The notes below the pieces were generated by a model. That model saw only the letters and a program-made list of their open reading frames with translations, searched no databases and was not told where the DNA came from. 64,000 nt of DNA from Escherichia coli (GTDB lineage Bacteria > Pseudomonadota > Gammaproteobacteria > Enterobacterales > Enterobacteriaceae): the NCBI RefSeq assembly GCF_050320075.1, contig NZ_CP190018.1; one strand, written 5' to 3'. The position numbers and the translations under genes are program-made. This document shows, piece after piece, positions 4,836-63,580 of the stretch. How positions within the stretch are numbered: the first letter of the stretch is position 1; every line of letters begins with the position of its first letter.

Positions 4836-5575
4836 GTAACTGGCCTTATCCCCGCATCGTCGCCCATCGTGGCGGCGGTAAACTGGCCCCGGAGAACACC
4901 CTGGCAGCAATCGACGTCGGGGCAAAATACGGTCATAAGATGATCGAATTTGACGCGAAGTTATCGAAAGATGGCGAGATCTTCCTGCTCCATGACGACA
5001 ATCTTGAACGCACCAGCAACGGCTGGGGCGTCGCGGGCGATCTGAACTGGCAGGATTTACTGCGCGTGGATGCAGGCAGTTGGTACAGCAAAGCGTTTAA
5101 AGGTGAGCCGCTACCGTTGCTTTCGCAGGTGGCGGAACGCTGTCGCGAACACGGGATGATGGCGAATATCGAAATCAAACCCACCACTGGCACCGGGCCA
5201 TTAACGGGCAAAATGGTGGCGCTGGCGGCACGCGAACTGTGGGCCGATATGACGCCGCCGCTGCTGTCATCGTTTGAGATTGATGCTTTAGAAGCTGCAC
5301 AACAGGCTGCACCGGAACTGCCGCGCGGTTTGTTGTTGGATGAGTGGCGCGACGACTGGCGAGAACTGACCGCGCGACTGGGCTGCGTCTCTATTCATCT
5401 CAATCATAAGTTGCTTGATAAAGCGCGAGTGATGCAGTTGAAAGACGCCGGATTACGGATTCTGGTTTATACCGTCAATAAACCCCAGCGCGCGGCAGAG
5501 TTGCTGCGCTGGGGCGTGGATTGCATCTGCACCGATGCGATTGACGTGATTGGTCCGAACTTTACGGCCCAATAG
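4832..5575 (+). CDS. ugpQ: glycerophosphodiester phosphodiesterase
   Basis: 247 aa; start overlaps ugpC stop; length and sequence match UgpQ. Confidence 0.95.
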
Positions 5576-7900: not shown

Positions 7901-7929
7901 GTCAGGGCAAGCCGGGTAATGACTCCAAC

Positions 7930-8433
7930 TTACTGATAGTGTTTTATGTTCAGATAATGCCCGATGACTTTGTCATGCAGCTCCACCGATTTTGAGAACG
8001 ACAGTGACTTCCGTCCCAGCCTTGCCAGATGTTGTCTCAGATTCAGGTTATGTCGCTCAATGCGCTGAGTGTAACGCTTGCTGATTACGTGCAGCTTTCC
8101 CTTCAGGCGGGATTCATACAGCGGCCAGCCATCCGTCATCCATACCACGACCTCAAAGGCCGACAGCAGGCTCAGAAGACGCTCCAGTGTGGCCAGAGTG
8201 CGTTCACCGAAGACGTGCGCCACAACCGTCCTCCGTATCCTGTCATACGCGTAAAACAGCCAGCGCTGACGTGATTTAGCACCGACGTAGCCCCACTGTT
8301 CGTCCATTTCAGCGCAGACAATCACATCACTGCCCGGCTGTATGCGCGAGGTTACCGACTGCGGCCTGAGTTTTTTAAGTGACGTAAAATCGTGTTGAGG
8401 CCAACGCCCATAATGCGGGCGGTTGCCCGGCAT
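7930..8433 (-). CDS. insB: IS1 InsB (transposase C-terminal part, made as InsAB' by frameshift)
   Basis: 167 aa ORF in the -1 frame overlapping the insA 3' end; matches IS1 InsB. Confidence 0.92.
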
Positions 8434-8627
8434 CCAACACCATTCATGGCCATATCAATGATTTTCTGGTGTGTACCGGGTTGAGAAGCGGTGTAAGTGA
8501 ACTGCAGTTGCCATGTTTTACGGCAGTGAGAGCAGAGATAGCGCTGATGTCCGGCAGTACTTTTACCGTTACGCACCACGCCTTCAGTAGCTGAGCAGGA
8601 GGGACAACTGATGGAGATGGAAGCCAC
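8352..8627 (-). CDS. insA: IS1 InsA
   Basis: 91 aa [43 protein letters not shown]...; zinc-finger/HTH protein of IS1. Confidence 0.92.
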
Positions 8628-8655
8628 GGGAGCACCTCAAAAACACCATCATACA

Positions 8656-9114
8656 CTAAATCAGTAAGTTGGCACCATTACCGGTATTTGCGATAAGATG
8701 TTGACAGAGGATAAATTCATAACTAACAGTTAATGTTTCTGTATCCAGTTGATTTTCAATGATCTGATGATGAATAGCCGATAAAAAAGCGCCTCTTAGT
8801 TGTATATAATAATACTTTCCCCATCTACCAAATCTATTTATTCGATAGAAGTCAAATTCCATAAATAATTGTTCATTATTGTTAATGGAATTAATAAATA
8901 ATGGAGTGCTTTTATCAATTAATTTACAAAATGTTATACCATGAAACTGTGAACCAAGCCCCGTATTAGTAATACTATTTAAGAATGAGAATGTAAATAT
9001 TTCATCCTCATGCCCGCTCTGCCAGCGATTACCTGTAGACTCAGAAGTCCCACAACCTGCGGAGATGCTTCCTTGTTGTTCTCCCGTTACTGTCAGGTAA
9101 ACAATATTACTCAT
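8656..9114 (-). pseudogene. yhhZ: Hcp-family (type VI secretion tube protein-like) gene truncated by IS1; the last 9 codons and the stop lie inside IS1
   Basis: 152 aa ORF MSNIVYLTVTGEQQGSISAGC...HEDEIFTFSFLNSITNTG...ITFCKLIDKSTPLF has Hcp-type motifs; the reading frame crosses the IS1 boundary at 8682 and stops at 8656; AT-rich. The yhhZ symbol is by position, from memory. Confidence 0.65.
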
Positions 9115-9349
9115 CCATGAAAAGTCCTTTTATGGCATGCTATTTTATCAATGGCACTATTATGCTTGTTAATTGTTATTTATTTACTCCAGGAAATTGT
9201 AGGCGTATATATTAAAAAATAAAATATTACACTTTAGGACGTAATTATGAGGTAAATCTTATATATTTATTGGGAAAATAAATACATTAAAAGAAGGTAT
9301 GCCGATTTTGAATGACACCCTTTTTCCATCTCAGAAAAAGGGCACTATC

Positions 9350-9838
9350 TTACTTCACCCGCGCCATATAATACGCATCGACATATTCACCATTACGTAA
9401 TGCGTACTTCTTGCCAGTCCCTTCAATCTCAAATCCAAATTTTTTATAGACTTTAATTGCTGGCGCGTTATCGATGAACACCGTTAGCTCAATACGATCT
9501 ACCCGCAACCAGTTGTCGCACATTTCAATCATCTCTCGCATCAGGGCGCTGGCGACGCCGCGATTCTTCCAACGGGAGTCGACACAAATACCAAAATCTG
9601 CAACATGACTGCGGCGTGGGCGCTGTTGCACGTCAATGGTGAGATGGCCCACGACGTCTCCATCAATACAGGCGACGAGTTGCTTGATGCCGGGACGATC
9701 GGCGAGTCGCTCCTGCCACATATGATCGGAAGGATGAGGCACCTGTAGCGTGTTGCAATACACCTCCGGCTGGGCGTGAATCTGCCTGATGGCCTCGTAA
9801 TCGCGCGTTTCAGCATGGCGTATCACTATCTCACTCAT
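9350..9838 (-). CDS. yhhY: GNAT-family N-acetyltransferase
   Basis: 162 aa from ATG at 9838 (MSEIVIRHAETRDYEAIRQIH...); GNAT motif region RGVASALMREMIE. Confidence 0.9.
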   Translation of the reverse strand: MSEIVIRHAETRDYEAIRQIHAQPEVYCNTLQVPHPSDHMWQERLADRPGIKQLVACIDGDVVGHLTIDVQQRPRRSHVADFGICVDSRWKNRGVASALMREMIEMCDNWLRVDRIELTVFIDNAPAIKVYKKFGFEIEGTGKKYALRNGEYVDAYYMARVK

Positions 9839-9919
9839 TCCTTTGTCCTCTTTGGGGTAAATGTCCCTTTCAACATCATTGACTTTCAAATGCGAGTCAA
9901 ATGCATTTTTTTTGCAAAA

Positions 9920-9960
9920 AGTGTTGGACAAGTGCGAATGAGAATGATTATTATTGTCTT
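9920..9960 (+). promoter_or_regulatory. ryhB promoter with Fur box
   Basis: gcgaatgagaatgattattattg (about 9934-9956) matches the Fur-box consensus (gataatgataatcattatc) and overlaps the -10 region directly upstream of the ryhB start. Confidence 0.65.
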
Positions 9961-10050
9961 GCGATCAGGAAGACCCTCGCGGAGAACCTGAAAGCACGAC
10001 ATTGCTCACATTGCTTCCAGTATTACTTAGCCAGCCGGGTGCTGGCTTTT
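9961..10050 (+). ncRNA. ryhB: Fur-repressed small RNA RyhB
   Basis: Sequence gcgatcaggaagaccctcgcggagaacctgaaagcacgacattgctcacattgcttccagtattacttagccagccgggtgctggctttt matches RyhB as I recall it, ending in a terminator hairpin gccagccgggtgctggc plus T-run; sits between divergent yhhY and yhhX as in K-12. Confidence 0.9.
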
Positions 10051-10172
10051 TTTTTGATCTTTCGTTTTCAATTTATCCACGGGAAGTGCTTGTGTTCGTT
10101 ATGCGCACTCCAGTAGGAACCACGTCCGCTTTGCGCTAAGGTGTAAATAATCACCTTAAAAAGGACGAAATC

Positions 10173-11210
10173 ATGGTCATCAACTGCGCCTTTATTGGCT
10201 TCGGCAAAAGCACCACCCGTTACCATCTGCCGTATGTACTTAACCGCAAGGATAGCTGGCATGTCGCGCATATTTTTCGCCGCCATGCGAAGCCGGAAGA
10301 ACAGGCCCCCATTTACTCTCATATCCATTTCACCAGCGATCTCGACGAAGTACTAAACGATCCCGATGTTAAGCTGGTTGTGGTCTGCACCCATGCAGAC
10401 AGCCACTTCGAGTACGCGAAGCGCGCGCTGGAAGCCGGGAAAAATGTGCTGGTCGAAAAACCGTTCACCCCGACGCTTGCCCAGGCGAAGGAGCTGTTTG
10501 CGCTGGCGAAAAGCAAAGGACTGACCGTCACGCCGTATCAGAATCGTCGTTTTGATTCCTGCTTCCTGACAGCGAAAAAAGCGATTGAAAGTGGCAAGTT
10601 GGGAGAGATTGTCGAAGTGGAAAGCCATTTTGACTATTACCGCCCGGTGGCAGAAACCAAACCTGGGCTGCCGCAGGATGGCGCGTTCTATGGTCTTGGT
10701 GTGCATACGATGGACCAGATTATTTCTCTGTTCGGTCGCCCGGATCACGTCGCTTATGACATCCGCAGCCTGCGTAATAAAGCCAATCCTGACGACACCT
10801 TTGAAGCGCAGCTGTTTTATGGCGACCTGAAAGCCATCGTCAAAACCAGCCATCTGGTGAAAATCGATTATCCGAAATTTATCGTTCACGGTAAGAAAGG
10901 TTCGTTTATTAAATACGGTATCGACCAGCAGGAAACCAGCCTCAAGGCTAATATTATGCCGGGCGAACCGGGATTCGCAGCGGATGATTCGGTCGGTGTG
11001 CTGGAGTATGTCAATGACGAGGGTGTGACGGTCAGAGAAGAGATGAAGCCGGAGATGGGCGATTACGGGCGCGTTTATGATGCGTTGTATCAAACCATCA
11101 CCAACGGTGCGCCAAATTACGTCAAGGAATCTGAAGTTCTTACCAATCTGGAAATCCTTGAACGAGGATTTGAGCAAGCCTCTCCCTCCACAGTGACTCT
11201 CGCGAAGTAA
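10173..11210 (+). CDS. yhhX: Gfo/Idh/MocA-family oxidoreductase
   Basis: 345 aa; N-terminal Rossmann motif AFIGFGKS; length matches YhhX. Confidence 0.9.
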   Translation: MVINCAFIGFGKSTTRYHLPYVLNRKDSWHVAHIFRRHAKPEEQAPIYSHIHFTSDLDEVLNDPDVKLVVVCTHADSHFEYAKRALEAGKNVLVEKPFTPTLAQAKELFALAKSKGLTVTPYQNRRFDSCFLTAKKAIESGKLGEIVEVESHFDYYRPVAETKPGLPQDGAFYGLGVHTMDQIISLFGRPDHVAYDIRSLRNKANPDDTFEAQLFYGDLKAIVKTSHLVKIDYPKFIVHGKKGSFIKYGIDQQETSLKANIMPGEPGFAADDSVGVLEYVNDEGVTVREEMKPEMGDYGRVYDALYQTITNGAPNYVKESEVLTNLEILERGFEQASPSTVTLAK

Positions 11211-15257: not shown

Positions 15258-15268
15258 TTACTGCGACA

Positions 15269-15296
15269 AATTACTGCGAGCTTGCTCGCAGTAATT
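15269..15296. promoter_or_regulatory. perfect 13-bp-arm palindrome at the gntU / insertion junction (terminator or operator)
   Basis: aattactgcgagc-tt-gctcgcagtaatt starts 12 nt after the gntU stop; preceded by a direct half-repeat ttactgcgac. Confidence 0.4.
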
Positions 15297-15396
15297 CATT
15301 TCTCTTATCTCCTCTCTTCATCTTTTTGATCTCTCTCGCAAATTTACCTGCTAATAATCCGTTCTAATCACTGCCTAAAGATCGCAGGAGATAAAG

Positions 15397-17493
15397 ATGG
15401 AAAAGCACGGAGCTGAATTGCTTTTACAGCGGATGTTAGGAAATACCACCGCTACTTTCAGGGAAGGGCAATGGGAAGCCATAGATGCAGTGGTTAATCA
15501 GCGGCGAAAACTGCTGGTTGTACAGCGCACCGGCTGGGGGAAAAGTGCCGTGTACTTCATCGCCAGTAAAATCTTCCGCGATCGCGGCGCTGGCCCGACA
15601 ATTATCATCTCTCCTTTGCTTGCCCTGATGCGTAACCAGGTTGCCGCCGCTGAACGGTTAGGTATTACGGCTGAAACGTTGAATTCTACAAACAGGGAAG
15701 AATGGCAGCGCATTAGCGATAAGTTGCTGCAAGGTGAGGTCGATTGCTTGCTGGTTTCCCCGGAACGTTTGGCAAACCAGGACTTTATCGAAACGGTTTT
15801 ATATCCTATAGCCGATCGTATTGGCTTGCTTGTGGTCGACGAGGCGCACTGCATCTCTGATTGGGGCCACGATTTTCGCCCGGATTACCGACGTATATTA
15901 GATATTTTGCGCCAACTGCCTGCGAATACCCCTGTTCTGGGTACAACCGCGACAGCGAATAACCGTGTTGTTGAGGATATCCGTCAGCAATTGGGTGACA
16001 TTGTGATTCAGCGTGGAACGCTGGCTCGCGAAAGTTTGGCGCTTGATGCCTTAGTCTTAGGAGAACAGTCATCCCGTCTGGCATGGTTAGCAACGGTTAT
16101 CCCTCAGTTTTCCAAATCGGGAATTGTTTATACCCTGACGACTCGCGATGCTGAACTTGTCGCCGAGTGGTTAAGGAAAAATGGTATCAGTGCATTTGCT
16201 TACTACAGCGGCGTGACTTGTGAAGGCGCGGAAGATTCTAATACTGCCAGGGAATATCTGGAGCAGGCACTGCTGGCAAATAAAATCAAAGTGCTGGTCG
16301 CGACGACGGCATTAGGTATGGGGTTTGATAAACCTGATTTAGGTTTCGTCATTCATTATCAGATGCCGGGGTCTATTGTCGGTTACTACCAACAGGTGGG
16401 GCGTGCCGGGCGTGCTATAGATTCCGCAGTTGGCATATTGCTTTGTGGTGGTGAAGACCGCGCTATTCATCAATTCTTCCGTGAAAGCGCCTTTCCTGCG
16501 GAGGCGCAAATTCATGAAATACTCAACGTACTTAGCGAGAATGACGGTCTTACCCTACGAGGCATTGAACAACGGACGAATCTTCGTTATGGGCAAATAG
16601 AAAAAGCACTGAAATTATTGGTAGCGGAAAATCCATCGCCTGTGGTGTATACCGAGAAATTATGGCGCAGAACTATCGTCAGTTTTTCTCCTGATCATGA
16701 ACGAATTAACCATTTGATGAATCAGAGAAAAAGTGAACTGGCAGACGTTGAAAGCTATATCACGACCAAGGAGTGCAAAATGCAATTTCTGCGCCGTGCA
16801 CTCGATGAGCCAAGTGCCGAACGTTGTGGTAAATGTAGCAGTTGTCTTCAGCATCCGTTATTGTCGCCCGACATTGATAGCGGCTTACTCCATGCGGCAA
16901 ATTTATTTATTAAACACGCTGACCTGCCGTTAAATCTCAATAAACAGGTGGCAGCTGGGGCTTTTACGCAATACGGATTTAAAGGGAACTTGCCTGCGGG
17001 TTTACAAGGATCTACGGGGCGAATCCTTTCTCGTTGGGGAGATTCCGGGTGGGGAAAGCAGGTAGCACAGGAGAAAAAAACGGGGCGCTTAAGTGATGAG
17101 CTGGTAGAAGCATGTGCGGAAATGGTTCGCCAACGCTGGAATCCGCATCCTGAACCAACCTGGGTATGCTGCGTTCCTTCATTAAGGCACCTCGACCTGG
17201 TTCCTGATTTTGCCCGGCGACTGGCGGCGAAACTTGGCTTACCTTTTATTGATGCCATTGAAAAAGTCGTGGACAATCCACCGCAGAAAATGCAGCAAAA
17301 CCGTTTTCACCAGTGTCAAAATCTCGACGGGGCGTTTGTGATTACCCCTCCTTTGATGCCAGGTCCGGCGTTGCTGGTTGACGATATCGTGGATTCTGCA
17401 TGGACGCTGACAGTTCTGACAGCACTGTTACGCCAGGCAGGTTGCCCGACGGTTTATCCTCTTGCCCTTGCTTCTACCTCGGTAAAAAATTGA
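15397..17493 (+). CDS. RecQ-family DEAH helicase with C-terminal CxxC and phosphoribosyltransferase-like domain (PsyrT/RqlH-like candidate toxin or effector)
   Basis: 698 aa; Walker A QRTGWGKSAV, DEAH box VVDEAHCISDWGHDFRPDYRR, helicase-C motif YQQVGRAGR, then CGKCSSC and a PRTase-type nucleotide loop LLVDDIVDSAWT near the C-terminus; SD gcaggag upstream of the ATG. Confidence 0.85.
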   Translation: MEKHGAELLLQRMLGNTTATFREGQWEAIDAVVNQRRKLLVVQRTGWGKSAVYFIASKIFRDRGAGPTIIISPLLALMRNQVAAAERLGITAETLNSTNREEWQRISDKLLQGEVDCLLVSPERLANQDFIETVLYPIADRIGLLVVDEAHCISDWGHDFRPDYRRILDILRQLPANTPVLGTTATANNRVVEDIRQQLGDIVIQRGTLARESLALDALVLGEQSSRLAWLATVIPQFSKSGIVYTLTTRDAELVAEWLRKNGISAFAYYSGVTCEGAEDSNTAREYLEQALLANKIKVLVATTALGMGFDKPDLGFVIHYQMPGSIVGYYQQVGRAGRAIDSAVGILLCGGEDRAIHQFFRESAFPAEAQIHEILNVLSENDGLTLRGIEQRTNLRYGQIEKALKLLVAENPSPVVYTEKLWRRTIVSFSPDHERINHLMNQRKSELADVESYITTKECKMQFLRRALDEPSAERCGKCSSCLQHPLLSPDIDSGLLHAANLFIKHADLPLNLNKQVAAGAFTQYGFKGNLPAGLQGSTGRILSRWGDSGWGKQVAQEKKTGRLSDELVEACAEMVRQRWNPHPEPTWVCCVPSLRHLDLVPDFARRLAAKLGLPFIDAIEKVVDNPPQKMQQNRFHQCQNLDGAFVITPPLMPGPALLVDDIVDSAWTLTVLTALLRQAGCPTVYPLALASTSVKN

Positions 17494-18695
17494 TGAATCT
17501 TTCAGCCAATGCACAAGCGACTCTCCTGCTAACCAGCGATTTTTCTCGCGCGGCGGCGAGTGAGTATAAACCTCTTAGTAATAGTGAATGGGGGAAGTTT
17601 GCATTATGGCTGAAGCACCAACGTATCAGTCCCGCCGATCTTCTGGTGCCGCAACCGCAAGAGAAACTTACAGGCTGGAGCGATCCGCGTATTTCTCAGG
17701 AGCGTATTCTTGGCTTGCTGGCGCGTGGTCATAGTCTGGCGTTGGCGGTAGATAAGTGGCAACGCGCCGGTTTATGGATCTTAACCCGCGGAGATGCCGA
17801 TTATCCCGTTCGCTTGAAAAACCGATTGCGAACGGATGCACCTCCCGTTTTATTTGGCTGCGGGAATAAAGCATTACTGCAAGCGGAAGGTATGGCGATT
17901 GTTGGCTCGCGAGATGCTCCGACTGCCGATTTGCGCTATACCCAACAACTGGCAGCGAAACTGGCCCAACAGGGGATTTGCGTTATCTCTGGTGGTGCGC
18001 GAGGTATTGATGAATGTGCAATAGCGTCGGCGCTGGAGGCCGGAGGAACTGCCGTTGGCGTATTAGCTGATAGCTTGTTAAAAACGAGCACGTTAGTGAA
18101 ATGGCGTGAAGGGCTTATAGCAGGCAACCTGGTGTTGATTTCACCGTTTTACCCAGAGGTACGTTTCACCGTCGGCAATGCGATGGCGCGGAATAAATAT
18201 ATTTATTGCCTTGCTGAAAGCGCAATGGTTGTACGTGCGGGAATGACCGGTGGAACGATAACCGGAGCGATGGAGGCGTTAAAACATCAGTGGCTGCCTG
18301 TTCTGGTTAAACCAAATCAGGATGTGCAATCAGCCAATTCACGATTAGTAGAAAATGGGGCGTCATGGAGTGCTGAACAGGCTGAGAATGTGACGATCAG
18401 ACTGCCAGACGTTCCTGGGCTGATGTATGACAGAGCACTCCGTAACGCTCAACCAGAATTGTTTTCGCTGCACGAAGATGACGCAAATTACGCAGTGATG
18501 CCCTCGCATACCCCTGTCGATTTTTATCAACTTTTTGTGGCGGAACTGGCGATCCTTGCAAAGGAATCGATAAGTATTGAAAGGCTGGCGTCTTGTACTG
18601 GTTTAACCATCGAACAAATTAGTATGTGGCTGAACCGCGCAGAAGAAGAGGGAAGGGTTATCCGATTGGGCGAAGGTCATTATCAGTTCAGGTAA
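17493..18695 (+). CDS. DprA/Smf-like Rossmann-fold protein (PsyrA/RqlI-like candidate antitoxin or partner)
   Basis: 400 aa from ATG 17493 (MNLSANAQATLLL...); DprA signature VISGGARGIDECAIASALEAGGTAVGVLADSL and NAMARNKYIYCLAESAMVV; the ATG overlaps the helicase TGA by one nt. Confidence 0.8.
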   Translation: MNLSANAQATLLLTSDFSRAAASEYKPLSNSEWGKFALWLKHQRISPADLLVPQPQEKLTGWSDPRISQERILGLLARGHSLALAVDKWQRAGLWILTRGDADYPVRLKNRLRTDAPPVLFGCGNKALLQAEGMAIVGSRDAPTADLRYTQQLAAKLAQQGICVISGGARGIDECAIASALEAGGTAVGVLADSLLKTSTLVKWREGLIAGNLVLISPFYPEVRFTVGNAMARNKYIYCLAESAMVVRAGMTGGTITGAMEALKHQWLPVLVKPNQDVQSANSRLVENGASWSAEQAENVTIRLPDVPGLMYDRALRNAQPELFSLHEDDANYAVMPSHTPVDFYQLFVAELAILAKESISIERLASCTGLTIEQISMWLNRAEEEGRVIRLGEGHYQFR

Positions 18696-18698
18696 TAA

Positions 18699-18734
18699 AA
18701 CAGGTGCCGCCTCTGGTTGTGTGCAGCACCTGTT
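18699..18734. terminator. bidirectional hairpin between the DprA-like gene and convergent yhgN
   Basis: aacaggtgc ...18-nt loop... gcacctgtt, flanked by A-run and T-run, placed between the two convergent stop codons. Confidence 0.45.
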
Positions 18735-18740
18735 TGAACC

Positions 18741-30386: not shown

Positions 30387-31904
30387 ATGGAAAGAATAAT
30401 GCAAAACGGAAAATGGATTTTGACCTCGCTGGTAATGACTTTTTTTGGCATCCCCATACTGGCGCAATTTTTGGCAGCGGTTGTTGCCATGCTGGGGGCC
30501 GGGCTTGCCGCTATTCTTGAGTTTTGCAATTTACTCTTTACACCAACAATTTATCTTCTACTCAACGTCTTTATGCTGACGCTGGGCGCATTACTGCTAT
30601 TTTTCTCTGGGCGAGTGTGGGCGGGCGATAGCGCACCAGAAAACAGAGAAATAGCCGCCTGGCGACAATGTCTTTTTTTAGTTCCCGCTTTATTAACCCT
30701 GGTTGGCTGGATAATCACGCTACATCTGGCAGATTATCAATTTCGCCAGATGGGAGCCGGTTGGTTGGCAAACCTTATGCTTCCCTGGTTGGGCGTTTTT
30801 ACAGTCTCATTCGTCGGTGGTGAGTACTGGTGGATAGTCATTATTCCCGTTGGCGCGCATATCAGTTTTTCACTGGGATACGGCTGGCCGACCAGACACC
30901 CTTTAACCGGCACCTCCGGTCTACGTTGCCGTAATTTACTTCTGTTCATTCTTCTCTTACTGGGTATTGTCGCTGGTTATCAGGCTTATTTATATAAACA
31001 GCTTAATCCCGGCGTCGGTGTGCGTGAAAATATTGATACCTGGGCCTGGCGACCCGATAAACTTAATAATCAACTGACGCCACTGCGTGGTAAACCACAA
31101 ATTCAATTTACGCAAAACTGGCCGCGACTCGATGGCGCTACGGCGGCGTACCCCATTTATGCCTCTGCATTTTATGCATTAAGTGTAATACCAGAGGATT
31201 TTCACGTTTGGGATTATCTGGATAACTCTCGTACGCAAGAAGCATATAACAAAATCGTTAACGGTGATGCCGATATTATTTTCGTGGCGCAACCTTCCGA
31301 TGGGCAAAAAAAACGCGCTGAGAAATCGGGCGTCACTTTGCTGTACACGCCATTTGCCCGTGAAGCGTTTGTTTTCATCGTCAATGCGGATAATCCGGTT
31401 AATTCCCTGACTGAACAACAAGTGCGTGACATTTTTAGTGGCGCAATTACCAACTGGCGCACGGTTGGCGGTAACGATCAGGAGATCCAGACCTGGCAAC
31501 GCCCGGAAGACTCTGGCAGCCAGACAGTGATGCAATCGCAGGTCATGAAAAATGTCCGCATGATCTCGCCGCAGGAAACCGAAGTGGCAAGCATGATGGA
31601 GGGAATGATTAAAGTCGTTGCCGAATACCGTAATACAAACAACGCAATAGGCTACACCTTCCGCTATTACGCAACACAAATGAATGCCGATAAAAATATA
31701 AAACTGCTAGCGATTAACGGTATTGCACCGACTGCAGAAAATATTCGCAATGGCAAATATCCCTATGTCGTCGATGCATTTATGGTAACGCGGGACAATA
31801 TGACGTCAGAAACACAAAAACTGGTTGAATGGTTTTTAACGCCGCAGGGGCAGAGTCTGGTGGAAGATGTGGGCTATGTGCCGCTGTATCCAACAATGAA
31901 ATAA
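30387..31904 (+). CDS. membrane protein with N-terminal multi-TM domain fused to a periplasmic PstS-like (PBP-like_2) binding domain
   Basis: 505 aa; first ~190 aa hydrophobic; C-terminal domain has the PstS-type motif NPVNSLTEQQVRDIFSGAITNWRTVGG and QRPEDSGSQTVM; tataat -10 at 30364-30369; alternative start ATG 30399. Confidence 0.8.
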   Translation: MERIMQNGKWILTSLVMTFFGIPILAQFLAAVVAMLGAGLAAILEFCNLLFTPTIYLLLNVFMLTLGALLLFFSGRVWAGDSAPENREIAAWRQCLFLVPALLTLVGWIITLHLADYQFRQMGAGWLANLMLPWLGVFTVSFVGGEYWWIVIIPVGAHISFSLGYGWPTRHPLTGTSGLRCRNLLLFILLLLGIVAGYQAYLYKQLNPGVGVRENIDTWAWRPDKLNNQLTPLRGKPQIQFTQNWPRLDGATAAYPIYASAFYALSVIPEDFHVWDYLDNSRTQEAYNKIVNGDADIIFVAQPSDGQKKRAEKSGVTLLYTPFAREAFVFIVNADNPVNSLTEQQVRDIFSGAITNWRTVGGNDQEIQTWQRPEDSGSQTVMQSQVMKNVRMISPQETEVASMMEGMIKVVAEYRNTNNAIGYTFRYYATQMNADKNIKLLAINGIAPTAENIRNGKYPYVVDAFMVTRDNMTSETQKLVEWFLTPQGQSLVEDVGYVPLYPTMK

Positions 31905-31929: not shown

Positions 31930-32922
31930 ATGAATAAATTCACCTGTGTTTTACTATTAGGTACGGCGCTACTGGCGGGATGTGTCGACCGGGAAGGGTA
32001 CTATAACAGCGTCAGGGAAGAAGACAGCCATGGACTGACGTCTCTGCGGGGGCAACCTGAATTACGTTACAACGATGATTGGTCAAGATGGCCGAGAGTG
32101 TACGGCGCTACAGCCTTATACCCGCTGTATGCCTCCGCGTATTATGAATTAGTACCCGAGCCAAAAGATAAGGATCGAACCTCGCTGGCCTGGCAGGCGT
32201 ATGGTTTGCAACAAACCCGAACAGCTGAAGCCTACGATAGTCTGATTAAGGGTACCGCGACGGTTATTTTTGTTGCACAACCGTCGGAAGGACAGAAAAA
32301 ACGTGCAGAAGAAGCAGGTGTTAAACTCAAATATACCGCTTTCGCCCGCGAAGCCTTTGTCTTTATCGTTGATATCAAAAACCCGGTTAATTCACTTAGC
32401 GAACAGCAGGTCAAAGACATTTTTAGCGGTAAAGTGAGTCGCTGGAATAAAGTGGGCGGCGGTGACGAAGGTATAAAAATCTGGCAGCGGCCAGAAGATT
32501 CTGGAAGCCAAACGGTTATGAAGGGACTGGTTATGCAAGATACTCCAATGCTGCCAGCCAAAAAATCCACTGTTATCGATCTTATGGGCGGTTTAATTAC
32601 CGAAGTCGCCGACTACCAAAATACACCATCTTCTATTGGATACACCTTCCACTATTACGTCACACGTATGAATGACAATATGCTCAAAATGCGCAAACAG
32701 ATCAAACTGCTGGCTATAAATGGCGTTGCACCTACAGAGGAAAATATCCGTAACGGCACTTATCCGTACATAATTCATGCTTATATGGTGACGCACGAAA
32801 ACCCTACGCTGGAAACGCAGAAATTCGTCGACTGGTTTTTAAGCCCGCAGGGACAGCAATTGGTAGAGGATGTGGGCTATGTGCCGATTTATGACGCATC
32901 ATCCGAATCATCAGGACAATAA
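31930..32922 (+). CDS. lipoprotein with PstS-like (PBP-like_2) binding domain, paralog of the C-terminal domain of the upstream gene
   Basis: 330 aa; lipobox LLAGC; shares IFVAQPSxGQKKRAE..GV.L.YT.FAREAFVFIV..NPVNSL.EQQV.DIFSG...W..VGG...I..WQRPEDSGSQTVM with the upstream ORF; SD aaagga. Confidence 0.8.
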   Translation: MNKFTCVLLLGTALLAGCVDREGYYNSVREEDSHGLTSLRGQPELRYNDDWSRWPRVYGATALYPLYASAYYELVPEPKDKDRTSLAWQAYGLQQTRTAEAYDSLIKGTATVIFVAQPSEGQKKRAEEAGVKLKYTAFAREAFVFIVDIKNPVNSLSEQQVKDIFSGKVSRWNKVGGGDEGIKIWQRPEDSGSQTVMKGLVMQDTPMLPAKKSTVIDLMGGLITEVADYQNTPSSIGYTFHYYVTRMNDNMLKMRKQIKLLAINGVAPTEENIRNGTYPYIIHAYMVTHENPTLETQKFVDWFLSPQGQQLVEDVGYVPIYDASSESSGQ

Positions 32923-33576: not shown

Positions 33577-33675
33577 TGCCGGATGCTGCGTGAACGCCTT
33601 ATTTTGTCTACAAAATCATGCAAATTCAATATATTGCATAAACCACGTAGGCCTGATAAGCGTAGCGCATCAGGC
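33577..33675. repeat. REP (palindromic unit) elements
   Basis: gccggatgctgcgtgaacgccttat (partial REP) and gtaggcctgataagcgtagcgcatcaggc (canonical REP) followed by a T-run. Confidence 0.65.
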
Positions 33676-53157: not shown

Positions 53158-53331
53158 TTACTGACTCGCCGCAGCCAACTCTTCTTCTGACACCCCGGTA
53201 AAACGCAGGGTGTCTGCAAGATGGACTCCGGATTACAGCATTCTTTTGGCGATATCCAGGGCTTCCAGGCGTCGATCCAATAAATAACCAATCAGGTAAC
53301 TAATAAGATATTCTCTTTCTGCATCTGTCAT
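53158..53331 (-). pseudogene. degenerate, frameshifted copy of an Rpn-family C-terminal tail immediately 3' of yhgA
   Basis: Minus-strand translation gives MTDAEREYLISYLIGYLLDRRLEALDIAKRML* then, in another frame, SGVHLADTLRFTGVSEEELAAASQ*, which parallels the yhgA C-terminus ...[36 protein letters not shown]. Confidence 0.45.
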
Positions 53332-53348
53332 TAAAACCATCCTTTACG

Positions 53349-54242
53349 TTATTGATGATTTATTTCAGCAAGGTCTTCAACCGTCAGGCTGGTAAATCGC
53401 AGAACGTCCTCAAGAGAGACTCCGGCATCCAGCATGGTTTTGGCAATATTTAGGGCGTTGGTACGTATACCTTTCTGAAACCCCTCCTGCCGCAATCTTT
53501 CCGCAATAGTCATTAAACTCTCCTTGTGTTTCGGTGAACGTTCGGCCACACCGTCGATAAAATCGTTAAAACGTACCGCATCGCCAGTTTGCAGTATGTA
53601 ATTAAACAGCCCTTTGATTTGTCTGTCATTAGCGTATCCACTACTTAATAAGCAGGCCATTTGCTCTACCAGCCCCATCAGGTCGCGTTGACGAATATGT
53701 TTTTGAATTAACTCCAGCAGTGCCATACGTCGGTGCTGCATGATTTCATCATCAGGCATGACGGTGACATCAATCAGCGGAAATGCAGAGGCATAAAGCT
53801 GCCTTGCCAGGTTGGGATCGGCGAAACAATCAAGCCAACACAGCGAATAGGGATAGGGGCTTTCAATACCGTGGTAAAACAACAATGGCACCACCATCGG
53901 CAAGGTTTTGTATCCGGCATCCAGGTGATTTTGCATTGCGGCAATGGCGTAGCGCATCATGCGAAATGCGATCAGTTTGTTTGAGGTGCTTTGATGTTCA
54001 ATCAGACAATAGATGTATCCTGGCCCTTGTTCCGTTTTCACCGACCACAGCACGTCGGAATAGCTTTCACGCAGATCGTCATCAATAAAGCTGCTCGACT
54101 CCAGCTTGAGGGTTTTCATATCACAGAGCGCGTGAATGGGTGCCGGTAAATGAAACGCAAGAAAATCGCGTGCCGTCTCCGGTTGGCGTAAAAAGAGTTT
54201 GAACAGCGCATCGTGTGGGGTGGAACTCTGCTTTTTGCTCAT
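53349..54242 (-). CDS. yhgA: Rpn-family recombination-promoting nuclease (PD-(D/E)XK, transposase_31-like)
   Basis: 297 aa; [28 protein letters not shown]...; matches YhgA/RpnA by sequence and position next to bioH. Confidence 0.88.
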
Positions 54243-54444: not shown

Positions 54445-54681
54445 TTAACGCAGCGCCCACCACTCGCGCAGACAGACTTTGCCTTCCGGGCAGCTTTTAC
54501 AACTGCCAGAGAGGCAGCCGTCAGGTTCTTCCTGAATCCGCACGGCTTTGCCCATGCTTTCCAGCTGTTGCAGCATGGCGTTAATCATTGGCTGCGGCGT
54601 ATTCAATGCCTGGCTTATCTGGGCCGCTTCCATACGGCCCCGTAACGCCAGCAAATCACGTACCTGAATAAGTGAAGCCAT
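54445..54681 (-). CDS. feoC: ferrous iron transport protein FeoC
   Basis: 78 aa from ATG at 54681 ([28 protein letters not shown]...); C-terminal Cys cluster [15 protein letters not shown]. Confidence 0.9.
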
Positions 54682-57002
54682 TAATGGCAATCACCGGTGG
54701 TGCTGGCTGCGCAGCAACTGCTTACCGATTTGCGCGTTGCCAGCAGTTCGATATTCACCCGGCTACGCGCGCGGCGCAGCAGACCGATAACCACGATGTT
54801 AAACAGGATAACCGCCAGAATGCACACCAGGCTGTAAGTTGGATGCTGGCTGTAGCTGGCGACTTGATAGAACAATGTTGCCAGCGAGTAAGCGATATTC
54901 AGCCCCCACAGGATGGAGAAGCCCATCCAGCCACGGCTTGATTCACGGGCGATAGCACCCATCACCGAGATGCACGGTACGTACAGCAGGACGAAAATCA
55001 GGTAGCTGTATGCGGCAGCTGCGCTACCGAATTTCTGATCCATCACACCCATCGCCCCGGTACCCATTTCGCCGTCGCCTTTGCTCGCTTCAATCGGGTT
55101 CATCAGTACGCTAAGGCTGAAGGTGTCTTTCAGGCTCTGCCAGGTTTCATCTACCGCACTGAACAGCTCTTCACCGAGGTTAAATTCCGCCGGATTGAAC
55201 TCTTCGTCCTGAATATTTTCTGCGGTGTAGAGGGTGTTGAGCGTACCCACCACCACTTCTTTCGCCATTGCGCCTGTAAACAGGCCAACCGTTGCCTGCC
55301 AGTTATCTTCATGCACGCCAATCGGCTTGAAGACTGGGGTGATCACCCGGCTGACGGAAGCCAGCGCCGAGTCGTTGATGTTATCGACGATTTTCCCGCT
55401 CAGAGAGAAGCTGTTGAAAGCACTCAGGAAAATGCTGACGATGATAATCACTTTACCAGCACGCAGAACGAAGCCTTTCAGACGCTGCCAGGTCTGGATA
55501 ATCAGGCTTTTAACGTGTGGTACATGGTAGACCGGCAGCTCCATGACAAACGGCGTCGCTTCACCGCGCATGATGGTGTACTTGAGCATCAGGCCCGTCA
55601 GCACCGCCATTACGATACCGAGCATATACAGCGAGAAGACCGCCAGCGCACCGTTCTGCCCGAAGAAGGCAGCCGCAAATACTGCGAAGATAGCCAGACG
55701 CGCGCCGCAGGACATAAACGGTGCCATCATGATGGTCATCAGACGTTCACGCGGTGCATCAAGCGTACGTGCGCCCATTACCGACGGTACGTTACAACCG
55801 AAACCAACGATCAGCGGTACAAAGGATTTCCCCGGCAAGCCCAGCGCCTGCATCAGACGGTCCATCACAAACGCCGCACGCGCCATATAGCCGGAGTCCT
55901 CAAGGAAGGAGAGGAACAGGTACATCATGCCGATCTGCGGCACCAGTGGCAGCACGGTGTTAATACCGCCACCCAGGCCCTGGGCGAGGAAGATAGTCAG
56001 CCAGTCCGGGAAGTGGAGCGTGTAGCCAATCCATTGAATACCATGCACAAATAGCGCCACGGAGCCGACGTCAAACAGCGGCTGTAACGCCCCGCCGATG
56101 TTGATAGCCAGCAGGAACATCAGGTACATCACAAAGAGGAAAATCGGCAGACCGAGGAAACGGTTGAGCACGATTTTATCTACCGCAGTGGTGAAACGGC
56201 TGGGTTCTGCCGTCAGGGTGTTGCTTACCACATCACAGATGGCAGCAATGCACTGGTAACGCGCATCGGCAATGTGCAGCGCCGGATCATCCATCTCATT
56301 ACGCAGACGGGCGAGGGCGGCATCAAGATGCTGCGACGCTTCACCGGCGTAGGCGCGGCTGTAGATATCGCCTTCCAGCATTTGCAGGCCCAGCCAGCGA
56401 CGTTGTTTCAGCGGGATGTCGGAAGGCATCACTTTTGCCAGTGAATCTGCTTCGTTGAGTAGCGGCTGTGCGTAATGCACCAGTTCCACATTCTCGTTAG
56501 CTTTATAGCGATCAATCGCCAGCTTGAGCGCTTCAATACCGCGACCACGGGTTGAAACCAGCGGGATCACCGGGCAGCCAAGACGCGCCGACAGAGCATC
56601 AATTTCAATACGAATATTTTGCTTCTCGGCAATGTCGAGCATGTTCAGTGCCACGATGCAGGGAATGCCGAGTTCCAGCAGTTGCAGCGTCAGGTACAGG
56701 TTACGCTCAAGGTTAGACGCATCCACCACGTTAATCAGCAGGTCGGCGTCGCCACTCAGAATATAGTGACAGGCGATTTGCTCATCGAGCGAGGTCTGCG
56801 ATGAGATGGTGGTCAGAGAATAGGTGCCGGGCAGGTCCACCAGCGTGACCTGATGATCGGTGGTGGAGAATTGCCCTTCTTTACGTTCGACGGTAACACC
56901 AGCCCAGTTACCTACACGCTGACGTGCGCCAGTGAGCTGGTTAAATAAGGTTGTCTTGCCAGAATTTGGATTACCAATTAAGCCAATGGTTAATTTTTTC
57001 AT
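54681..57002 (-). CDS. feoB: ferrous iron transporter FeoB
   Basis: 773 aa from ATG at 57002 ([25 protein letters not shown]); G-protein domain plus polytopic membrane domain. Confidence 0.96.
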
Positions 57003-57018
57003 TGTTGTTATCACCGTA

Positions 57019-57246
57019 TTAACAGGAAACCGCTTCCACTTCTAATAAGGCCAGATCTTTTTTGCGTAATACCAGGCTCACACGACGGGTTTCGATATGA
57101 ATGGGGTCGCCGAGTGGAGCGACGCGCACCACATTAAAAGAGGAGCCAGGTAACATGCCTAGAGAAAGCAGTTTTTGGCGATATGCCGGGCTGATTTCAC
57201 GGGAAAAGCCAGTGATTTTCCACGCAGTATCTGGAGTGTATTGCAT
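57019..57246 (-). CDS. feoA: ferrous iron transport protein FeoA
   Basis: 75 aa [51 protein letters not shown]... Confidence 0.95.
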
Positions 57247-57354: not shown

Positions 57355-57377
57355 ACAATGATAATGAGAATGGTTTC
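57355..57377 (-). promoter_or_regulatory. Fur box in the feoABC promoter
   Basis: aatgataatgagaatggtt resembles the Fur consensus gataatgataatcattatc, about 110 bp upstream of feoA. Confidence 0.55.
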
Positions 57378-57578
57378 TATCAGCAATACTTAAAATGTGT
57401 GCGAATGTTGGTTTGAATAATAATCTGACTCAATGTTGATGTGGCTCAAGGTTATATCGCAGCGAAAATATAATTCGAATAGCGAATTACCAGGACTGGT
57501 TAATGTTTAATTAAGGTTTCAGTTGTTAATGAAGTGATAAATATTAACGGGATATATTGAGAGTTTGGTTGTGGAATA

Positions 57579-62907: not shown

Positions 62908-63204
62908 TTAGATTGTTTTCAATTGATTGATAATGAAAGGATTCGCTTGCAAAAGCAGGAGCAATTTTCGGGGTGCTCCGGTAGGTTGACGGCGTTTGGT
63001 TTCCCAGCTTTTGACCAGGTCATAACTTACCCCTACGGCGACAGCAAAATCTTGCTGACGTAAACCCGTTGCTTCACGGATCGCTTTTACATCGATTTCG
63101 CTAAAAGTATGGACGTGCTCTGGTTCAGGCGCTTCTTCACCCTTTTCGATGCGTACCATTTCTTCTGCGCTGGCAAGAAGATCAGCAAATAATTCGTCTT
63201 TCAT
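62908..63204 (-). CDS. XRE-family HTH antitoxin (HigA-like)
   Basis: 98 aa; HTH region IREATGLRQQDFAVAVGVSYDLVKSWETKRRQPTG; lies 58 bp downstream of the toxin-like ORF on the same strand. Confidence 0.75.
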   Translation of the reverse strand: MKDELFADLLASAEEMVRIEKGEEAPEPEHVHTFSEIDVKAIREATGLRQQDFAVAVGVSYDLVKSWETKRRQPTGAPRKLLLLLQANPFIINQLKTI

Positions 63205-63262
63205 CTGTTTTCAATGCCTCCGTTGGCATTTCGGCCATGGTGGAATTTGTGGAGCTTCAACA

Positions 63263-63580
63263 TTAAAGCAGCTTCTCGGACAATAGTTTCAATGCCTTTC
63301 TTTGTTCTTCTGTTAAATCATCCTGTTCATTTTTAGGATAAATCAACGCCAGATAAATTCGGCCATTGCGTGTTACGTTGTAATAAATTATCCGAATGCC
63401 ACCCCGTTTCCCCATTCCAGAACGGTTCCAGCGAATTTTTCTAAAACTGCCTGTGCCTGCGATAATGTCACCGGCAGTGGGATCTTGAATGAGTAGTTCC
63501 TGAAAAGCCCGGAACTCATCATCAGGTAACAATAACTGGCGGCGTTTGCTAAATCCTTGTAGTTCAATAAACGTGAACAT
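63263..63580 (-). CDS. RelE/ParE-superfamily toxin of the Gp49/HigB-like type
   Basis: 105 aa; motif KRGGIRIIYYNVTRNGRIYLALIYPKNEQDDLTEEQ typical of Gp49/HigB-like toxins; toxin-first order. Confidence 0.75.
   Translation of the reverse strand: MFTFIELQGFSKRRQLLLPDDEFRAFQELLIQDPTAGDIIAGTGSFRKIRWNRSGMGKRGGIRIIYYNVTRNGRIYLALIYPKNEQDDLTEEQRKALKLLSEKLL

Follow-up and report, generated by a model that had tools for sequence, protein, structure and literature searches.

The ryhB locus of an Escherichia coli window: an intact small RNA gene with a predicted Fur operator beside an IS1-associated deletion

Introduction

The closest described system is ryhB of E. coli K-12 MG1655 (b4451, NC_000913.3 3580922–3581016), which lies between the divergent yhhY and the downstream yhhX. 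The gene is Fur-repressed (PMC2189734), and its Fur site, of 25.2 bits and located at −15, binds Fur in gel-shift experiments; its flanking sites score 8.2 and 8.3 bits, and four walkers are spread over 31 bp (PMC2189734). RyhB homologues of other Gammaproteobacteria, grouped in the Rfam family RF00057, share an exact 27-nt core with the E. coli RNA, whereas their 5′ stem-loop and spacing vary and, in several genera, two copies occur on separate contigs. Fur control in vivo has also been reported for feoABC of K-12 (Kammler et al. 1993, as cited in PMC2189734), with sites of 13.4, 10.9 and 10.5 bits upstream of feoA (PMC2189734). Beyond yhhY, K-12 carries an IS1E element within yrhA, together with a full-length yhhZ, yrhD and yrhB.

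We describe here how the corresponding loci compare in a stretch of 64,000 nucleotides from E. coli, referred to below as the window, which runs antiparallel to the K-12 coordinates. The segment 9925–10056 is almost certainly the canonical, intact E. coli ryhB locus, as judged from its sequence, with a predicted sigma-70 promoter, a predicted high-affinity Fur operator, a 90–95-nt small RNA and an intrinsic terminator. Such a locus is textbook knowledge and carries no novelty, and since this copy matches the characterised RyhB, the significance beyond annotation is small. What is gained for this strain are the exact position of ryhB and a numerical score for its Fur site.

The ryhB gene

The gene and its immediate neighbours are arranged as follows.

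9350–9838, minus strand: yhhY, GNAT N-acetyltransferase of 162 aa, intact, divergent from ryhB
9961–10055, plus strand: RyhB small RNA, 95 nt by the K-12 RefSeq boundaries; the classical 90-nt form is 9961–10050
9994–10020, plus strand: RyhB core or target-pairing region GCACGACATTGCTCACATTGCTTCCAG, an exact 27-mer
10029–10056, plus strand: intrinsic terminator, from a terminator scan, the minimum free energy (MFE) fold and the Rfam structure line
10173–11210, plus strand: yhhX, oxidoreductase of 345 aa, intact, downstream of ryhB, with one substitution relative to K-12

An Rfam scan of the whole window yields a single ryhB copy, a match to RF00057 at 9990–10054 on the plus strand that scores 83.1 bits (gathering score 55; E = 3.6e-14) and spans the entire model, positions 1–67. 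The model represents only the 3′ 67 nt of RyhB, and the complete transcript was placed by aligning the window to the yhhY–yhhX intergenic region of MG1655. In this alignment RyhB is 100% identical to b4451, with no difference from +1 through the terminator and for 11 nt further; three changes relative to K-12 follow past the terminator. Neither the seed nor the terminator thus carries a substitution relative to MG1655, and the single-stranded target-pairing core GCACGACAUUGCUCACAUUGCUUCCAG is found exactly at 9994–10020, the same as in K-12. The terminator comprises a stem at 10029–10047 of 7 bp, five of them G-C pairs, closed by a 5-nt loop and followed by nine T, as befits the Rho-independent terminator and U-tail that make up the Hfq-binding 3′ end of RyhB. 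Gene order, yhhY-ryhB-yhhX-yhhW-gntR, is that of K-12, and the yhhX/yhhY synteny of E. coli is thus kept. The first-pass annotation of this DNA had described the RyhB sequence as complete, which the alignment bears out; the span that it gave, 9920–10050, holds the −35 element, the Fur box, the −10 element and the RNA, but leaves the last bases of the U-tail (to 10056) outside.

The MFE fold of RyhB recovers both the terminator and the central hairpin. Folded alone, on the other hand, RyhB is no more stable than its shuffles (z = −0.67), a behaviour that is common among small RNAs; folding energy was left out as evidence, and the covariance-model match outweighs this weak result. A literature search for a coding or dual-function role of RyhB gave nothing relevant, and the mechanically called open reading frames that overlap ryhB were discounted as evidence for genes.

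RefSeq/PGAP records with the identical sequence (for example CFSAN061763; L002, about 5112–5206) carry no ryhB feature, and the K-12 record lists it as an ncRNA. The missing feature is an annotation gap and no sign of gene absence, and comparisons that rely on annotation will overlook ryhB in most E. coli genomes.

The promoter and Fur operator of ryhB

The regulatory elements lie directly upstream of the RNA.

9925–9930, plus strand: −35 hexamer TGGACA, from a promoter scan, same as K-12
9937–9955, no strand assigned: main Fur dimer site AATGAGAATGATTATTATT in 9-1-9 register, from the matrix, centred at 9946, which is −15 from the transcription start
9940–9958, no strand assigned: Fur box GAGAATGATTATTATTGTC by the classical 19-bp definition, lying across spacer and −10 element
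9949–9954, plus strand: −10 hexamer TATTAT, from the promoter scan, inside the Fur box

A consensus scan of 9700–10300 finds only one promoter-like site, with 10/12 hexamer matches and an 18-nt spacer, and the start predicted 7 nt past the −10 element coincides with the K-12 +1. Both hexamers and the Fur box are the same as in K-12, in agreement with the earlier description of the Fur-box promoter as complete. By mismatch count, GAGAATGATTATTATTGTC agrees with the consensus GATAATGATAATCATTATC at 16 of 19 positions and is the sole site of at least 15/19 in the 64 kb; block shuffles gave 0.13 sites at 15/19 per window and none at 16/19 in 30 shuffles. A second match, of 14/19 and shifted by 6 bp, occurs at 9934.

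For quantitative scoring, which the first-pass annotation had called for, a Fur matrix was built from 12 experimentally supported K-12 sites, with ryhB itself excluded. Ten of these were taken by coordinate (yoeA, gpmA, sodA, fecI, entC, fhuF, nohA, fadD, cir and exbB) and the remaining two were the best sites found between fepA and fes and between fepD and entS, one for each region. The coordinates were those of footprint- or gel-shift-supported sites in Table 4 and the text of PMC2189734, converted to NC_000913.3, and all ten coordinate-based sites fell in register at offset 0. The main ryhB site is strong: its 24.5 bits are the top score of the window, where the next best is 10.9, and fall within the range of the training sites themselves (20.8–29.2 bits). 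They also exceed every maximum among 100 shuffled windows (mean 12.3, highest 18.6 bits). Weaker sites flank the main one at 6 bp on each side, of 3.8 bits (centre 9940) and 9.2 bits (centre 9952), and the ryhB operator thus shows the clustered architecture of weaker sites at 6-bp spacing that fits the description in PMC2189734. The predicted operator, at −15 and over the −10 element, argues for a Fur-repressed promoter, and its placement over both spacer and −10 has the geometry expected for repression by promoter occlusion. By consensus and matrix alike, no other Fur site within the 64-kb window exceeds chance.

The way in which RyhB works was reportedly established by Masse and Gottesman in 2002, and the same scheme would hold at the present locus. 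When iron is present, Fe2+-Fur dimers on the operator would occlude the ryhB promoter; upon iron starvation Fur would depart and RyhB would be made. Together with Hfq, the RyhB core would then pair with the mRNAs of non-essential iron proteins (such as sodB, sdhCDAB, acnB and ftnA), leading to decay of the target mRNAs, and iron would be spared. The same Fur would also repress feoABC, 47 kb away, via weaker clustered sites. For this strain we infer induction upon iron limitation and Hfq-dependent down-regulation of sodB, sdhCDAB and other targets from the identity of the gene with that of K-12.

Conservation of RyhB and its Fur box

Of 5,426 complete E. coli genomes, 5,424 contain the 321-bp ryhB locus. 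When contigs representing one genome per species were searched for the core, at least 120 stretches proved to hold the exact 27-nt sequence; they belong to Enterobacterales, Aeromonas, Photobacterium, Aliivibrio, Zobellella and Salinivibrio. Among the 118 loci with enough upstream sequence, 116 have a Fur match of 14/19 or better in the 120 nt before the core, the box being 50–80 nt from the core, against 8 of 360 random 120-nt windows drawn from the same loci; core and Fur box therefore form a conserved unit. E. albertii and other enterobacteria have the same Fur box, likewise at −54 relative to the core, and the present window holds the standard Escherichia form of this unit.

Many genomes outside Escherichia differ from the window, with its one copy, in possessing two separate exact-core loci, each with its own upstream Fur box. 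They come from Yersinia, Photorhabdus, Serratia, Pantoea, Pectobacterium, Hafnia and Mixta, and the locus pairs include L008/L009, L014/L015, L029/L030, L040/L041 and L056/L057. In Salinivibrio two copies of the RyhB core are arranged in tandem, about 300 bp apart.

A minority promoter allele

Relative to K-12, the ryhB promoter differs at two places only, the base at −1 and a run of T upstream.

9906–9913 (−55 to −48): T-run, eight T here and seven in K-12
9960, plus strand: single-nucleotide difference at −1, T here and C in K-12, from the alignment

Of 5,418 E. coli genomes, 394 (~7% of complete genomes) contain the exact 59-mer 9932–9990, whereas in 5,023 the best match is 95–99% identical, the sampled rows all having one mismatch; the −1T form of the promoter is therefore a minority lineage allele.

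IS1 and the deletion beside yhhY

On the far side of yhhY the window departs from K-12.

7915–8682, minus strand: IS1 element of 768 bp, with 23-nt terminal inverted repeats and intact insA/insB
8656–9114, minus strand: tssD/yhhZ (Hcp-toxin fusion) in truncated form, with 144 codons of its own and 8 from the IS1 end, and the junction at 8682

The element has what defines IS1, namely inverted repeats of 23 nt (87% complementary), insA of 91 aa, insB of 167 aa and the A6C frameshift site TTAAAAAAC on the minus strand at about 8371–8379. No target-site duplication of 8–9 bp is present, the flanks GGCAAGCCG and GGTATTTGC being unlike each other, as expected after an IS-adjacent deletion. Deletion of adjacent DNA is a classical behaviour of IS1. 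Compared with the near-identical, IS1-free strain CFSAN061763, IS1 replaces 1,958 bp, and what has been lost is yrhB except for 13 bp, the yrhD remnant, yrhA, and tssD/yhhZ past codon 144, that is, the 3′ two-thirds of the Hcp-toxin gene. Compared with K-12, too, the window lacks yrhB, yrhD and yrhA, as well as yhhZ as far as codon 144, which is the last one kept. The remaining product matches Pfam T6SS_HCP (PF05638) with 47.8 bits over residues 25–138 and contains the Hcp domain only; a full-length YhhZ-type protein would have Hcp plus a C-terminal nuclease domain in 392 aa, and the gene is thus a truncated remnant. Its end, after codon 144 and eight IS1-derived codons, confirms the earlier reading of an IS1-disrupted Hcp locus.

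Strain U1 (NZ_CP041359.1; L003, 2963–3730) carries a 100% identical IS1 of the same 768 bp in the same orientation, likewise between ggt and yhhY but inside yrhA, and there it is flanked on both sides by the 9-bp duplication GATTATTAA and by complete flanks. The window has no duplication and, compared with U1, lacks 1,047 bp towards ggt and 920 bp towards yhhZ. This suggests, as the simplest history, an insertion of IS1 in yrhA that may have been followed by two successive IS1-adjacent deletions; no intermediates with a single flank missing were seen. Both junctions are common to two of 5,426 complete E. coli genomes, YZLc1-3 (chicken) and Ec-U3 (human), both of which match the window at 100% identity across 24 kb. 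We considered whether the element is the IS1E of K-12 and rejected this: the two are only 93.2% identical and their flanks differ, IS1E residing elsewhere in yrhA, and this is therefore not the K-12 insertion.

At the sequence level the effect on yhhY and ryhB is nil. YhhY has two conservative substitutions relative to K-12 and a Pfam Acetyltransf_1 match of 68 bits, and its gene shows no nucleotide difference from IS1-free relatives; over 8682–10200 those relatives differ from the window at two positions, 8944 in the tssD fragment and 9292 in the gap between tssD and yhhY. The IS1-associated deletion thus leaves the ryhB promoter, the RNA and both flanking genes unchanged, and the earlier claim that ryhB and yhhY were undisturbed holds at this level. 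A distance of ~850 bp to the rearrangement had also been given; this fits the start of the Hcp gene (9114, 847 bp from the ryhB +1), but the IS1 boundary at 8682 is 1,279 bp away. The IS1 event has cost the strain the C-terminus of the Hcp toxin as well as yrhA, yrhD and yrhB, and the iron-regulatory locus has been spared.

Alternative explanations

That the RyhB match is a chance likeness or a decayed, non-functional remnant is improbable to the point of being negligible; the Rfam E-value, the full identity with an experimentally characterised K-12 gene, the retention of the locus in all but two of the complete E. coli genomes and the exactness of the core across many genera refute it, and nothing was found in its favour. 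With the locus taken as RyhB, one may still ask whether the −1T/eight-T allele makes a measurable difference from K-12 in Fur repression, in promoter strength or in the choice of start site. Nothing else in the promoter differs from K-12, and the two changes belong to a minority form. Furthermore, the −1 T occupies position 18 of the weak promoter-proximal Fur site (centre 9952), the score of which it raises from 5.6 to 9.2 bits, and the T-run lies within the UP-element zone. Both changes, however, fall outside the 24.5-bit main site and outside both hexamers, and position 18 of a 9-bit flanking site adds little binding energy. T also occurs naturally at the equivalent −1 position in other genera with the same box (for example L061 and L092), and a one-base homopolymer change upstream of −35 is common neutral variation. 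An effect of the allele on RyhB regulation is thus possible but unlikely; if true, the −1 T and the eight-T run would make repression by Fur slightly tighter or move the RyhB start site, and would thereby give the lineage its own set-point of the iron-sparing response.

The other way in which an intact sequence could mislead concerns IS1, since the element and its flanking deletions might affect how yhhY or ryhB is expressed, be it by read-through, by an outward promoter or by changed local topology. IS1 is itself intact, the stop codon of yhhY is only 668 bp away from it, the tssD fragment reads into the IS1 end, and the arrangement is rare, being confined to the two genomes named above. However, yhhY shares the minus strand and its direction with the tssD fragment and with insA/insB; IS1 therefore lies downstream of yhhY, where it cannot give that gene a promoter. 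ryhB, on the other hand, is divergent, 1.28 kb off, and has its own promoter and terminator, and the differences at 8944 and 9292 lie outside yhhY and outside the yhhY–ryhB intergenic region. We thus regard a disturbance of either gene by IS1 as very improbable, and retain the reading of a canonical ryhB locus with its standard Fur operator.

The predicted Fur sites of feoABC

The second iron-related locus of the window is feoABC, with the following features.

54445–54681 (about): feoC
54681–57002 (about): feoB
57019–57246, minus strand: feoA, first gene of feoABC, start at 57246, from the open reading frame list and K-12 alignment
57357–57381, no strand assigned: feoA-proximal pair of Fur sites, centres 57366 and 57372, 6 bp apart, from the matrix
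57416–57434, no strand assigned: feoA-distal Fur site, centre 57425, from the matrix

The proximal sites score 10.7 bits (57366) and 10.9 bits (57372), each with 13/19 by consensus, and the distal site scores 8.6 bits. By position, 57366, 57372 and 57425 match the 13.4-, 10.9- and 10.5-bit sites of PMC2189734, respectively. These values, 8.6–10.9 bits, are much weaker than the 24.5 bits of the ryhB site and compare with shuffled-window maxima averaging 12.3, so that singly none of the three is above chance in 64 kb. The 200 bp that hold the three predicted sites are, on the other hand, identical to K-12 and place them at the expected positions relative to feoA, and the sites gain credibility because of their clustering, their promoter position, the K-12 identity and the published in vivo data for that identical sequence. 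The feoA sites are thus right by position and literature, and weak by matrix. Fur boxes had been placed at 57355–57377 by the first-pass annotation; they are present and the same as in K-12, but taken alone they are weak. Its description of the window as carrying two Fur-controlled loci is a fair summary, no other standout site being present.

Other features of the window

A Dam site, GATC, at 9963–9966 covers +3 to +6 of ryhB, directly past the Fur operator. A GATC 'within or upstream of yhhY' is listed among sites whose methylation changes with time (PMC5155068); because that paper gives no position, a link between the two cannot be claimed.

The other of the two above-gathering Rfam matches in the window is the small RNA ES036 (CssrF) at 33612–33654, with 43.6 bits (gathering score 37.6); it is situated between glpD and glgP, barely within the portion that K-12 also has.

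Several segments are extra relative to K-12, as listed here with the genes that they contain.

15258–18740: 3.5-kb segment absent from K-12, between gntU and yhgN, with a PsyrTA anti-phage toxin-antitoxin pair
15397–17493: PsyrT, RecQ-like helicase, PADLOC 1064 bits
17400–18695: PsyrA, DprA/SLOG-like, 663 bits
30622–33460: 2.8-kb segment absent from K-12, between glgP and glpD, where K-12 keeps only a yzgL remnant
30387–31904 and 31930–32922: two PstS-like (PBP_like_2) proteins of the glgP–glpD segment, accompanied by small hydrophobic open reading frames
53265–53480: about 216 bp extra within the 3′ end of rpnA (yhgA)
53349–54242, minus strand: RpnA, here 297 aa, with a different C-terminus and the N-terminal YhgA-like nuclease domain intact
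62908–63580: some 790 bp between envZ and pck that K-12 lacks, with a small toxin-antitoxin-like pair
62908–63204: HTH_3/HTH_31 protein of 98 aa, partner of the RelE-family protein
63263–63580: RelE-family protein of 105 aa, Pfam RelE 27.6 bits, just above the cutoff
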